63,486 nt of DNA, filler included, from Dugesia japonica (GCA_001938525.1; 5 parts of 5 records of this genome joined end to end with filler, not necessarily neighbours in it), one strand, 5' to 3'. Positions 30,731 to 44,717 are shown, counted from the first letter of the whole stretch. Notes: a model not told the origin generated them from the letters alone. Program-made: numbers and translations.

Positions 30731-31000
30731 TAACACGAAGTAATTTACGAAAAATGCGCCATGCATGGCGCAAGATGTAAGATGAAAAAATGTGACACGA
30801 AGTATTTTATGAAAATTGAAAAATGTGACACGAAGTAATTTATGAAAAATATTTTATGAAAAAAATATTTTTTCATAAAATATTTTATGAAAAATGTAAT
30901 TTTATAAAAAATGAAAAATCTGACACGAAGTATTTTATGGAAAATGTGACACGAAGTAATTTATGAAATATCACACGATACATTTAAGAGGAAACATTTA
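30731..31000 (+). repeat. Left TIR of Polinton A (outer part cut by contig end)
   Basis: Reverse complement of 44283-44431 plus a 121-bp internal expansion; five ACACGAAGTA(A/T)TT units. Confidence 0.92.
30755..30772. promoter_or_regulatory. 18-bp perfect palindrome, copy 1
   Basis: TGCGCCATGCATGGCGCA; function inferred only. Confidence 0.6.
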
Positions 31001-31021
31001 GGTAAAGTAAGGTGAAAAAAG

Positions 31022-31060
31022 TGGCTACCTTTTGGCTACAAAGTGGCTATAATTTGGCTA
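31022..31060 (+). promoter_or_regulatory. Four TGGCTA direct repeats phased at 11 bp
   Basis: Starts at 31022, 31033, 31044 and 31055, ending 15 nt before the ATG at 31076. Confidence 0.55.
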
Positions 31061-31075
31061 TAGAAAAAAGAAGTA

Positions 31076-31615
31076 ATGGCATTAGAATATGAAAAGAAAA
31101 CATGTGAAAATGTTGAAAAAAGTATAAAGTGTGCAAATAATTTTGATTCTAATTTATTTATTAAATCTGAAAAAATTTGTTTAGTTTCAAAATATAAAGA
31201 AATTAAAATGAGAAATCCAAATGTGAAAGATCACATAATTGCAAAAGAAATGGGGATATCAACAATCACTTTAGATAAAGCATTAAGAGATTTAAATTTA
31301 AAAGATGAAAGAAAAAGATATCAAAGATTAAAATATTACTTTTATGAAAAAACAAAAACATTTATAAATGATCAATATGAAAATTATTTTTTTAATGTTA
31401 AAACAAAGAACTTTGAATTAATTCCCGAAAAACCTTTAAAAATAACATTAACAGAAAAAAGGAACGAAGCAAATGGAAATGATGAAAATGCCGCACCTAA
31501 ACGAAAAAGAGTAACACCAAGTGAGATTGGTGGAAAAGTTCATAAAGAAAATAAATATGAAGATGAAATAGAAAAATCTTTAAATGCTTATAAAACTCCT
31601 TTAAAAAATGGATGA
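31076..31615 (+). CDS. Putative HTH DNA-binding protein with NLS
   Basis: Intact 179-aa ORF; KDHIIAKEMGISTITLDKAL fits the HTH pattern; PKRKRV resembles a monopartite NLS. Confidence 0.6.
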   Translation: MALEYEKKTCENVEKSIKCANNFDSNLFIKSEKICLVSKYKEIKMRNPNVKDHIIAKEMGISTITLDKALRDLNLKDERKRYQRLKYYFYEKTKTFINDQYENYFFNVKTKNFELIPEKPLKITLTEKRNEANGNDENAAPKRKRVTPSEIGGKVHKENKYEDEIEKSLNAYKTPLKNG

Positions 31616-31838
31616 GTTATTGGATTATGTAAAACAAGATAAAGAGTTTAGAAAGAATTTATCTGAGAATTATAAAATTGTAAAAGAAGTTATATTACAT
31701 AATATTTATCCTCAAGATGAAATGTTTAAAGAAGCACTTAACATAGCAGGAGAAACAATTTATGATTTACAAACAAGAAATTATTTATTAGAGAACGAGT
31801 TAACTATAATGAGTCAATATGATGAAGAAAAAAATTAA
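31608..31838 (+). CDS. Small hypothetical Polinton protein
   Basis: 76-aa ORF overlapping the upstream stop by 8 nt. Confidence 0.5.
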   Translation: MDELLDYVKQDKEFRKNLSENYKIVKEVILHNIYPQDEMFKEALNIAGETIYDLQTRNYLLENELTIMSQYDEEKN

Positions 31839-40457: not shown

Positions 40458-40511
40458 TTTCTTTTATAAAAATATACATGATAATGTATTATTTATAATG
40501 TCTAATCTCGA

Positions 40512-43500
40512 TTACCACATTTCATATTTTTCACATTTATATTTATTTCCATGTGGCCGTGTTCTTATTCCATTATCTCCTATAATTCTTTTATCATCGA
40601 AAGCCATTAAGGAAATCTTTTTCTGTTCAACTAATTCAATTTCATGTGCATTGGATACTAATGAATAATTTGTTCCATAAAATTCTTTCTTTGGATCTTT
40701 TAATACTACATCAAAATCTTTCATTAAAATTTTATTGTTTTTCTTTAAACCTTTATTTCTTGAATCATATCCTCCTTCGTAAGTGTATCCATAAGATTTC
40801 GCTTTTATAAAATTACCTTGAATTATTTCTTTATTAGGTAATTCATCTTTCATTTGAAATAATTCATTTCCTAGTAAACTTTCTAGTTTTATTAAATTTT
40901 CTTTACCTTTTATCTCAACAAAGATTGAATCGGTGTCACTGTAATGTATTTTATAATTATTATTTCCTATTAAATGTGCCATTTGATTGTATATAAAATC
41001 ATACATTGTTTCTTTTGCATATTCAAGAATTTTAAAACCTATATATGGAAATTTATTATATTTTAATTTTGCTTTTATCATATGCATTGCCGCTACATTG
41101 GCTTCATTAGTATCATTTGTTGTAAATATTTTACTTGATTTAAAATTTACTTTAGATGCGAATTTTTGGTAATCTTTGTCATTATCTAAAATTTCTATGT
41201 TGCATCTATTTCTGATATTTTCTAATGTTTTTCCATAAAATACATTCAACATTAATTTATAAATATAATCACCGAAAACATCACCATTTCTTTTAGCTTC
41301 TTTTCTAAATTCTATTAATTTATGAACATAATTTCTAAACCATGGACATGTTTTCATTAAAAATTTCTTATGTACTTTTGTTAATTTCATTCCAAGTCTT
41401 ATATATAAATCTAGTGTGCTTCCAAGAACAACATTATTTTTCTTGTCAAATTGATTCAATGTAAGTTTAATATTTTTCTTTGATAATTTCTTACCAAAAG
41501 CTTTTTGATAATTACTTAACATTTCTTCTGTAATATTTATTCTTTCTGGACATAATGGAAAATATTTTGTTTTATCATGTAATTCTTTTGGATATTCTAA
41601 ATCAACTTCATAAATATAATTCATGTTTTCATTTGTTATTTCATATTCTAAATTTTTAGACTCACTGATTTCTCCTGTAGGTAAAGGTTTTGTCATACAA
41701 CTTGCATATAAAGAATTTTCATCAATATATTTTATAAATGTATCTTCAAAATAATCATCTGGAATATTTTTTCCTTCTTTTAATAATTTTATTAAATCTT
41801 CTTGTTGAGCTTTATTTATTTGTCTATAAAGTTTTTCTGAATTGTGAGAATAAACTTGTCTTTCTCCTGTTACACCAGAATATCCCCCTCTAATGCCTTC
41901 TTCTATTTTTAAGAATTGGTCATAAGTTTCAGATTTCGCATATTTTAATTTAACATTTCACATTCCCATGAATAACCTGGAGCTGAATATGAATAACATG
42001 GATCTAATTGTAAAATATTATTTAAACTTTTATTACGAAAATTTTCTATGAAATCTGAAAGGATTAAAACACCAAGTTTCATATAATGTAACATGTAATC
42101 ATGCATATTATCATGTTCTTGAAAGTCATCAAGAAATGCCGCATATCCATCATCAGTGATTCCTTTTTGTGTTAATGTATTAAAGAAATCATCTTTAGTT
42201 GGAATTTTATTTGATTTTAATAATTCTTCTACTTCTCTTAAATCTTTTCCTTTTACATATTCATATGGAAATAATGCTTTCTTAGGTTTTAAATTAAAGG
42301 AATTTAATATTGGATAATTATTTGATGCTGTTAATAATTTTCCCATCACCTCGACTGGTGTAAATGGTAATAATCTTGCCGAATCTAAAAATCTAATATT
42401 TCTTTTATATTCAAATGAAATATAATTATCTGATGAATGTGGAATTATTCTTTTAACTGAAGATGGATATTTTGTTAATAATTCTCTAAAGAATAAATGA
42501 TTATCATAACCAGATGCATTGTGAAAATAAAATGGTATAATTAATTTTTTATCAGAAAGATCATTTAAATTACATTTATTACATGACCATCCTCTAAATT
42601 CAACATTAAAATGATTATGATCTTTAACTGGAATTCCATATATTTCTTAATCACAATATCTACATTTTGTGTCGGGTATATATTCAGTAGCTTCTCCTGT
42701 AAATTCTTTTATTAATTTATTTTCTTTAATGTCTTCTAATTTATTATTCATTTCCTTTAAAAATTTAAAGAATTCTTTATGAAGATTTTTACCTGTGAAT
42801 AGATAATATTTACTTTCTAATAATTCTGGATATTCGCTAAGAAGATAAACACCTAAAGCTATAGCGTTTTGTTTTTTAGTTACTGTATCTGTGTAGGCTT
42901 CAAAATCTCCTATAAGTATAAATGGAATTTTATTTTTCTGATAATATTTATTAAATTGATAATAATCATTATATTCAAAAACAATATTATTTGGTTTGTG
43001 CTTAATACAAGCTTCTTGATGTCTCATTAAAATTTCTTCAGTTGAATAACAATTCATACATCTAAGACAAGGATAATTTCTATTAGTATTTGTTGTGAAA
43101 AATATAGACATATTTTGACATAAAATATAATGATCTTTATATACTATCAAATTACATTTATTTTCTTTTGGATCTGGTTTTACTATGTGATGTGAAACAT
43201 ATAATGGTTCAAGTTTTTTATTATCATTTACTCCGAACACATTTATTTTCCAATTATTTAAATTTTCGAATTTTTTTATTTCATCAATTTTTATTGGAAA
43301 TTTAAAATCTGTATAATCTAATTCCGATAAATGCTTAACATAATTTCCTACTCGTGTTGGATGATCAGATAGATATCTATGAGCTAAAATTGAATAAGGA
43401 AAACATTTATTATCATCATTTTTTATATTTATTACTCCTTGTTTTGTAAATGGTAATTTGCAATATGTTGCTCCTGCTAATGATTTATATTTTGATAATT

Positions 43501-44224
43501 CAATTTTATAACTAAGAATTTTTTTCAATGCCCATCCTGATTCAGATTGAGCTTCATCTTCAATATATCCTTGTAAATTGTTAAATATTTCATTAAAACC
43601 TTTTCCTATTTTAGATTGAATTACAAATCTTTTATTTGTTGAATAAGAAGTAAATTCTCTTTCTACATATTTCTCCTGTGATTCTTTTCCATATCGACAT
43701 TTTACCCACATGCTTACAATAATCTTTTTTCCATACTTAAAATATTTTTTAACTATTTCTCTAACTTCATCTTGAAATATGTTAATATCTTTAATTGGTT
43801 TTAAAAATGTTTGTTCTACATTTGTTTCGATTGTTACTTTACTTTCTTTAAAATAGTCAATTTCATAATATTTATATTGGTTTATAATTTCTCTAATCGA
43901 TGAATTTTCATTAATTGCTTCCATAGCTTTTAAATGCTTTTTAAAATTGTTTTGATGTTTCTTAGAATTTATGAGTTATTACATGATTTCTTCTAGTAAA
44001 GTGAGTGCCGCATATTCTACACGTTGTTGGAAAATTTCTTGTGTTTCCAAAAGTAGTTAAATGTTTTTGTAAACCAAATTGTGTTCTAAAGTTTTTTTTA
44101 ACATTTATTACATTGAAATGTTCTTCTTTCTGAATAACACGATCTATAATCAAGATGTCCTTTTAATCCTGCTAAATTCTTAAAAGTCTTTTGAGATTTT
44201 TGGACATTTGTTTATTTCACTCAT
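40512..44224 (-). pseudogene. Protein-primed family B DNA polymerase with N-terminal zinc fingers and endonuclease-VII-like insert; several stops and frameshifts
   Basis: GDFEA (ExoI), FHNASGYD (ExoII), YIDENSLY (A), KLMLNVFYGK (B), YSDTDS (C); CRYC..VKDHNH..FRGWSCNKCNL; three CxxC..H fingers at 43940-44224. Confidence 0.95.
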
Positions 44225-44282
44225 TTTATAAATTTTTAATTTAATCATATTAACTTTATATTTTAACAGAACACTTACATGT

Positions 44283-44717
44283 TAAATGTTTCCTCTTAAA
44301 TGTATCATGTGATATTTCATAAATTACTTCGTGTCACATTTTTCATTTTTCATAAATTACTTCGTGTCACATTTTTTCATCTTACATCTTGCGCCATGCA
44401 TGGCGCATTTTTCGTAAATTACTTCGTGTTACATTTTTCATTTTTCATAAAATACTTTCGTGTTACATTTTCCATTTTTCGTGAAATATTTTTTCATAAA
44501 TTATTTTTTCATAAATTATTTTTTCATAAATTATTTTTGATACAATATGTTATCGTGCGATATTTCTATTTAAAATAATTTATGAAAATCCACAAACGCG
44601 ATTTTCATAAATCGCAAAAAAAATAATTCATGAAAAATGCAATTTAAGAAATCTAAAATTTAAAATTCCGTTTTGAAATTTTCTTTTTTCGGCCGAAATC
44701 CAATATACTACACTACT
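44283..44717 (-). repeat. Right TIR of Polinton A (~435 bp)
   Basis: Inverted match to the left end; minus strand begins AGTAGTGTAGT, a Polinton-type terminus; outer limit inferred from that motif. Confidence 0.85.
44390..44407. promoter_or_regulatory. 18-bp perfect palindrome, copy 4
   Basis: TGCGCCATGCATGGCGCA in the right TIR. Confidence 0.6.

Follow-up and report, generated by a model that had tools for sequence, protein, structure and literature searches.

The window analysed here comprises 63,486 nt of Dugesia japonica DNA, filler included (GCA_001938525.1; five parts of five records joined), and contains at about 30731-44717 an element that, by its gene content and ends, is a decayed Polinton/Maverick. 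Recurring within this element is an 18-bp palindrome, TGCGCCATGCATGGCGCA, which we located by a scan of the window at 30755, 34920, 35745 and 44390, with no mismatch at any of the four positions, confirming the four exact copies reported in a preliminary description of this DNA. All four are embedded in a single 22-mer made up of AAA, the 18-mer and A, and, as that description also held, the 22-mer is inverted in the right terminal inverted repeat (TIR). The two internal copies lie at the ends of an orphan gene, here called gene X:

30752..30773, + strand: 22-mer copy 1 (palindrome 30755-30772), in the left-TIR array, 304 nt upstream of the ATG of open reading frame (ORF) 1, orf1
34917..34938, + strand: 22-mer copy 2 (palindrome 34920-34937), between the integrase stop (1 nt away) and the gene X ATG (26 nt away)
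35742..35763, + strand: 22-mer copy 3 (palindrome 35745-35762), in the last codons of gene X and 4 nt past the ATPase stop (minus strand)
44389..44410, − strand: 22-mer copy 4 (palindrome 44390-44407), in inverted orientation within the array of the right TIR, with the putative ATG of DNA polymerase B (PolB) 166 nt downstream

Within the 63,486 bases there was no fifth copy of the 18-mer at up to three mismatches, the 9-bp half-site occurred nowhere else, and no degenerate copies were seen. Under an order-2 Markov model the number of copies expected in 14 kb is 3.5e-9, and not one of 100 shuffles contained a match to the 18-mer. Within the window the 22-mer is confined to the ~14-kb Polinton/Maverick. 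This element is extremely AT-rich, as previously described (23% GC), and the four palindromes are its GC-richest 18-mers. The palindrome core is fully symmetric, and its centre, TGCA, is self-complementary although these bases would form the unpaired loop of a hairpin, an agreement with a chance of 1 in 16. In folding predictions both strands formed a GC stem of 7 bp, with z between -2.2 and -3.2 in all seven windows, and as DNA the hairpin had -8.7 kcal/mol. Each copy also begins with an ATG (30754, 34919 and 35744 on the plus strand, 44408 on the minus strand) that opens a tiny ORF encoding MRHAWR and two to three further codons before TAA, in copy 2 in frame with both the integrase and gene X; with a post hoc chance of ~0.01-0.05, we retain this pattern as a curiosity.

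The element carries the genes and ends of a Polinton/Maverick of adintovirus-like type: a protein-primed PolB (pPolB), an rve integrase, an A32 packaging ATPase, a double-jelly-roll (DJR) capsid and TIRs with the end motif. Seven core proteins have matches in L001 and L002, two closely related complete Polintons recovered in our search for relatives (see below). The right end reads ACTACT at 44712-44717, and the left terminus lies inside an N gap (30631-30730); (AGT)2//(ACT)2 is given as the Maverick end motif in the available text of PMC8097293. The features of the element are as follows:

about 30731-44717: Polinton/Maverick host element (pPolB, rve integrase, A32 ATPase, DJR capsid, TIRs)
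30731..31000, + strand: left TIR, visible inner part with a 33-bp tandem array; the outer part is lost in scaffold gap 30631-30730
31076..31615, + strand: orf1, 179 aa, open, with a weak helix-turn-helix (HTH)-like signal (Pfam, Atlas); candidate binder
32106..33414, + strand: major capsid protein (double jelly roll), broken by an in-frame stop and a frameshift (PF21738, E = 3.6e-11)
33566..34918, + strand: PLA2-like domain and rve integrase in a single frame, with one in-frame stop (PF08398, PF00665, E = 8.4e-10)
34964-35770, + strand: gene X, orphan, 268 codons, two in-frame stops; its frame passes through copy 3 and ends ...NQMRHAWRKN, stop
35767..36519, − strand: A32-like packaging ATPase, one in-frame stop (PF04665, E = 2.8e-9); its stop overlaps that of gene X
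38615..39076, − strand: putative adenain-like protease, one in-frame stop (31% identity to an L001 ORF)
39148..39930, − strand: putative minor capsid protein, named from its match to L001/L002 virion-module ORFs (no Pfam match)
39996..40457, − strand: pX-like small protein (phmmer E ~ 1e-6 to L001/L002 ORFs; the L001 ORF has a weak Adeno_PX match)
40512..44224, − strand: pPolB, broken by stops and frameshifts (PF03175, E = 1.1e-10 and 2.2e-6)
44283..44717, − strand: right TIR, ending ...ACACTACT; AGTAGT read inward is the Maverick (AGT)2 end motif

The protease label derives from the L001 ORF, which has a weak Peptidase_C5 match (E = 0.0087), and 38615..39076 itself gave no direct Pfam match. 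The HTH-like signal of orf1 consists of a weak match to Pfam HTH_10 (E = 0.044 on a 67-aa piece) and of Atlas HTH clusters at 0.78-0.81, which serve as a lead. Homologues of the integrase are at most 53% identical, one of 120 being named 'Trichoplax MELD virus', and the protein ends at the usual position of its family, with the same end residue in 46 of the 60 homologues shown (counted by eye). PLA2-like genes are described for adintoviruses in the accessible part of PMC8502044; in the present element the PLA2-like domain is in frame with the integrase. The two form one ORF here and in many metagenomic homologues, and are separate adjacent genes in L001.

We next compared the positions of the four copies. 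Copies 1 and 4 occupy an equivalent position in the two TIRs (146 of 149 aligned TIR bases are identical, and both copies lie within the 33-bp array, copy 4 being 310 nt inside the right terminus), so there are at most three independent sites. The TIR copies stand upstream of the first inward-reading genes and at no gene 3' end. Thus, while the preliminary description was right to place the palindrome in both TIRs and at two internal gene 3' ends, the TIR copies are neither independent of each other nor 3'-end features. Copies 2 and 3 form a direct repeat with a spacing of 825 bp, which is a multiple of three, and the pair is flanked by the integrase stop 1 nt to its left and the ATPase stop 4 nt to its right; removing the 825-bp interval would leave one site between these two stops. 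The copy said to follow the integrase stop does so, and it also precedes gene X, while the copy said to sit where the two gene blocks converge is copy 3. The claim that the internal copies bracket a gene of ~810 bp holds for copy 2, which lies outside gene X, and fails for copy 3, through which the gene X frame reads. Overall, two of 13 gene ends are followed by the motif, one contains it and ten lack it.

Gene X had no homologue among 5.8 billion clustered proteins or 1.84 billion representatives, no match in Pfam, PHROGs, NCBIfam, phages or PDB sequences, and none among 340 ORFs of related loci (best E = 0.35). The tail of its frame, which contains copy 3, would be open by chance with P = 0.037 and has a coding-like composition. 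For the middle of the frame, the nearest Atlas cluster was one auto-named LmbU family (0.90), followed by DUF3102 (0.86), with recognition below threshold. According to the available text of PMC6510168, LmbU is an HTH homodimer that binds CGCCGGCG, a site with the same CGCC/GGCG half-sites as the palindrome and a spacer of 0 there as against 6 here. In contrast to LmbU, gene X gave no hidden Markov model match in NCBIfam or Pfam, and the likeness may be coincidence. Searches with predicted folds of gene X returned nothing clear, the best hit (Z 5.3) falling on generic helices.

The preliminary description drew weight from a palindrome that stays invariant in a mutated element. The identity is real; the weight is not borne out. 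We estimated decay at ~1% (7 in-frame stops over 712 opportunity sites), at which the probability that all 72 palindrome bases remain untouched is 0.49, and perfect identity therefore shows no selection after insertion. We consequently rejected a deduction of selection from invariance, which shows only that the copies were identical at insertion. The flanks are more informative. Between the TIR and internal copies, identity ends sharply at the palindrome with its AAA and A, and the sharp edges look like a retained motif rather than an arbitrary duplication. The matching flank As alone have P = 0.04 for one comparison. Upstream flanks were unrelated in all three comparisons (p 0.38-1.0). Downstream flanks showed a weak likeness between copies 2 and 3 (p = 0.03 against random element pairs, 0.07 against shuffles) and between copy 3 and the TIR (p = 0.08 and 0.035, respectively), a duplication signal that is suggestive only.

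To place the motif among relatives, we searched GTDB contigs with an integrase profile built from 39 sequences (38 of 120 fetched homologues and the query) and obtained 34 distant loci (L001-L034) at 28-42% identity. These are Polinton-like contigs binned in bacterial or archaeal metagenome-assembled genomes of GTDB, probably as eukaryotic contamination, and both TIRs are visible only in L001 and L002. None of the 34 loci contained the 18-mer at up to three mismatches, the 22-mer had no match in the GTDB contigs, and blastn with the copy-2 region gave no relevant match in phages or plasmids. The translated palindrome was likewise absent from the 120 integrase homologues, a result that says little because these homologues stop before the palindrome. 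Judged against the 34 distant loci and the GTDB contigs, among which there is no close sibling, the motif is lineage-specific, and the earlier claim of an element-specific motif is supported within the DNA searched, which includes the one Polinton in the window that carries it. Two of the relatives have GC-rich repeats or hairpins of their own. In L004 an 11-bp GC hairpin followed by a T run lies directly after 3077, ~10 nt after the integrase stop, and L010 has repeated GC-rich palindromes at 14308-14625 (CAGGCTCGATTGAGCCTG, four times) past its last ORF, which may belong to an adjacent repeat.

We tentatively favour, at somewhat short of even confidence, the explanation that the 22-mer is an element-specific dyad site, recognised at the DNA level by a dimeric protein, that was duplicated as gene X entered. 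The self-complementary centre, which has no use in a hairpin loop, and the promoter-side position of the TIR copies favour recognition of double-stranded DNA, and 18 bp is the size of HTH-dimer operators. The TIR copies stand upstream of genes, gene X lacks a homologue, and the edges of identity are the edges of the motif. A protein dimer linking the ends to the middle and a cassette boundary had been offered as separate options in the preliminary description, and the geometry favours both together. The ancestral element would have had one internal site at the convergence of its two gene blocks, each block then lying between this middle site and one of the TIR sites. Short-homology recombination, with either a small circle or a further AT-rich Polinton, would have brought gene X in at the middle site, and the entry of this gene as an 825-bp cassette would have duplicated the site, as may be compared with PeSL cassettes in T4-like phages. 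Least certain are the last steps, in which the binder would be encoded by the element, as the HTH-like orf1 product or X itself, and would use the sites to set transcription of both gene blocks. In a bolder and quite unlikely version, the whole would be a phage-like operator/repressor module: X would be a dimeric HTH regulator that arrived as a cassette via its own 22-bp operator, loops between its flanking sites for self-control, and, by binding the TIR operators, decides whether the replication and capsid blocks are latent or active.

Several observations weigh against a duplicated dyad site. The case comes from a single copy of the element, and the relatives reached are all distant; of 29 GC-rich hairpins in ten related loci of at least 5 kb, none recurred more than 300 nt away, so Polintons in general do not share this feature. 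No selection is needed to explain the invariance (P ~ 0.5), and the two internal copies, lying directly after stop codons, also fit a terminator. The HTH signals of orf1 and gene X are leads only, and the predicted folds of gene X are uninformative (AlphaFold pLDDT, its per-residue confidence score, of 36 and 61). Finally, the composition of gene X is not foreign (GC content at third codon positions 9%; third-position test p = 0.07), and its likeness to the other genes would be expected of exchange among AT-rich Polintons, not of host-gene capture, and also of long residence.

Copy 2 follows the integrase stop by 1 nt and copy 3 the ATPase stop by 4 nt, placements that would suit a bidirectional RNA hairpin ending both transcripts while the TIR copies block read-through, an account we regard as possible but unlikely. 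The GC stem predicted on either strand in all seven windows, a TTT next to the 3' side of the palindrome on the minus strand and the strong GC hairpin directly after the integrase stop of L004 (1 of 27 related integrase ends, several ORFs being partial) are in its favour. Yet the motif is missing from ten of 13 gene ends, neither TIR copy marks the end of a gene, a gene X transcript ending at copy 3 would be cut short of the stop codon, the loop is self-complementary, and Rfam gave no match to the palindrome at E ≤ 1. The sequence is also exactly repeated, whereas the hairpin signal of Mimiviridae is not sequence-conserved in the consulted portion of PMC4402537. The Mimivirus-type hairpin or polyadenylation signal proposed in the preliminary description thus appears weak, and we rejected the Mimivirus hairpin rule as a family assignment, the motif being exactly repeated and not at gene ends generally. 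Equally unlikely, in our view, is a neutral by-product, in which template switching during strand-displacement replication was concentrated at the TIR palindrome, one copy of which served as repair filler at the junction and was then duplicated like a target site when X inserted, leaving functionless internal copies. Two origins (the TIR and one internal copy) would suffice for this history, the DNA hairpin is of the stability given above, invariance needs no selection, and the motif is absent from all related loci searched. On the other hand, both internal copies keep the whole palindrome with matching A flanks and little else, and they sit flush against conserved stops with no frame broken and at a spacing that is a multiple of three.

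A site for a host transcription factor, acting as an enhancer like the palindromes of baculovirus homologous regions (hrs), seems to us very unlikely. The palindrome does contain two inverted TGCGC half-sites of NRF1/EWG type, or alternatively YY1-like CGCCAT cores, and the TIR copies are promoter-proximal; a repeat beside a second Polinton remnant in the window has GCCGCCATTTT and TTTCCCGCCAAAA arrays, which we take to be YY1- and E2F-like. The half-sites are, however, separated by 8 bp, against 2 bp in the NRF1/EWG site GCGCATGCGC, and degenerate copies or half-sites are lacking elsewhere in the element, unlike typical host-factor sites. The available text of PMC10810270 covers spacers of 0-7 bp, reporting that human NRF1 binds with 3-7-bp spacers at 3-14-fold lower affinity and that discrete half-sites have low activity. 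We give very little credence to a dedicated recombinase site for excising or inverting modules, for which 22-bp direct repeats bounding one gene, and gene blocks each lying between two sites, might argue. The element's ORFs gave no match to a tyrosine or serine recombinase family, although one might be provided by an orphan gene or a helper; lox-type sites place inverted arms on either side of an asymmetric spacer, in contrast to the symmetric core seen here, and the termini, where rve integrases act, are 310 nt away. An assembly or linker artefact is hardly credible. The assembly is a draft with many gaps and a TTAATTAATTAA scaffold spacer, one gap lying 24 nt from copy 1, but the two TIR copies correspond in position and have surroundings that are 98% identical, the integrase ends at its family position directly before copy 2, and reading frames are respected, on which grounds we rejected it.

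We then asked how the motif relates to known systems, which are cited here from excerpts of the respective papers. PeSLs of T4-like phages (PMC2839356) are repeated regulatory stem-loops at which exchange between nearby copies adds or removes orphan genes, and they share with copy 2 a place between the stop of one gene and the start of an ORFan. They consist of a bacterial sigma70 promoter and a terminator, number ~50 per genome and vary, whereas here an exact dyad occurs in a eukaryotic element at three independent sites, including the TIRs, and cassette mobility would be a matter of its proposed history. The integrase had no match in the phage collection, and the element is a eukaryotic Polinton, not a T4-like phage with sigma70 promoter and Shine-Dalgarno sequence. 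Baculovirus hrs (PMC4535591) are similar in that a palindrome recurs at several positions in a viral genome that is AT-rich, and the TIR copies here likewise lie in tandem arrays; hrs contain 3-8 imperfect palindromes per locus, a single unit being little active, as opposed to the lone perfect palindrome found here at each locus of a linear element whose replication is primed at the ends. By analogy the motif would work like PeSL cassettes or hrs, but it lacks defining features of both. In Mimiviridae (PMC4402537), hairpin-forming palindromes stand directly after stop codons, as for two genes here, but it is the structure that is kept, not the sequence, and it marks transcript ends generally, whereas the repeat described here is exact, follows 2 of 13 gene ends and also stands upstream of genes. 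Palindromes inside the TIRs of Polinton-like elements are also reported for Halocafeteria virophages and Polinton-like viruses (10.64898/2026.07.28.741278); those are 52 nt long, lie at the extremity beside the target site duplication and are tied to replication without pPolB, unlike the 18-nt palindrome 310 nt inside a pPolB element with internal copies.

Further repeats were noted in and around the element. Tandem arrays of a 7-nt unit, AAATGT(G/A/T), lie upstream of the integrase, ATPase, protease and capsid genes (33429-33510, 36536-36584, 39082-39101 and 32088) and in the TIR arrays, are ~4-fold enriched in non-coding DNA and represent a candidate promoter element. The start context TAAATG, which resembles the poxvirus late promoter, occurs at 4 of 12 starts (32106, 33566, 36519 and 39076) against 54 of 630 ATGs (p = 0.015, post hoc). 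Repeats of 11 nt, GTGGCTA(C/T)/TTTGGCTA, lie at 31018-31062, directly upstream of orf1 and outside the TIR. Elsewhere in the window, 5788-6722 (minus strand) is a decayed capsid fragment of a related Polinton with 45-53% amino-acid identity to the element's capsid, and 47976-50577 (minus strand) is a remnant of a different Polinton lineage (ATPase, integrase and a downstream ORF), closest to L011, from which the palindrome is absent. The GCCGCCATTTT and TTTCCCGCCAAAA arrays are at 50739-51160, upstream of the ATPase of this second remnant, with a related inverted stretch at 30510-30583, and may belong to the remnant's end or to another repeat. Inverted regions of ~72% identity (26278-28405 and 54407-56274) and a 176-nt inverted repeat pair (54196-54371/58207-58382) are probably from another transposon family, and reverse-transcriptase/RNase H fragments of retroelements flank the Polinton (44812-47140, 12587-13168 and 62724-63128).

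The preliminary description did not recall such a motif in Polintons, and we found no description of one in the literature searched (Repbase, Dfam, subscription papers, the 2006-2007 founding papers and bioRxiv supplements lay outside it). The 18-mer did not occur in that literature, 'palindrom' was absent from the main text of PMC8502044, PMC11296320, PMC8097293 and 10.1101/2023.08.22.554363, and the motif had no match in the supplements of PMC8502044 (in part), PMC8097293, PMC10748475 and PMC11131425, whose content of element DNA is not established. From its sequence and placement, the 22-mer appears to be a real, lineage-specific and apparently undescribed cis motif in one Polinton copy, for which a cassette history is plausible. 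Module mosaicism is reported for animal Polintons in the accessible parts of PMC8502044 and PMC11296320. No cis-element for the control of transcription or of module swapping in these elements was found in the literature searched. With an exact 22-bp site common to the ends and a gene boundary, assays of binding, reporter activity and 3' ends have a well-defined probe, and a duplicated dyad site predicts that siblings lacking X retain a single site between the integrase and ATPase stops. A neutral motif would be no more than a record of the gain of one orphan gene; if its binder is encoded by the element, it would be a first latency switch for the group.

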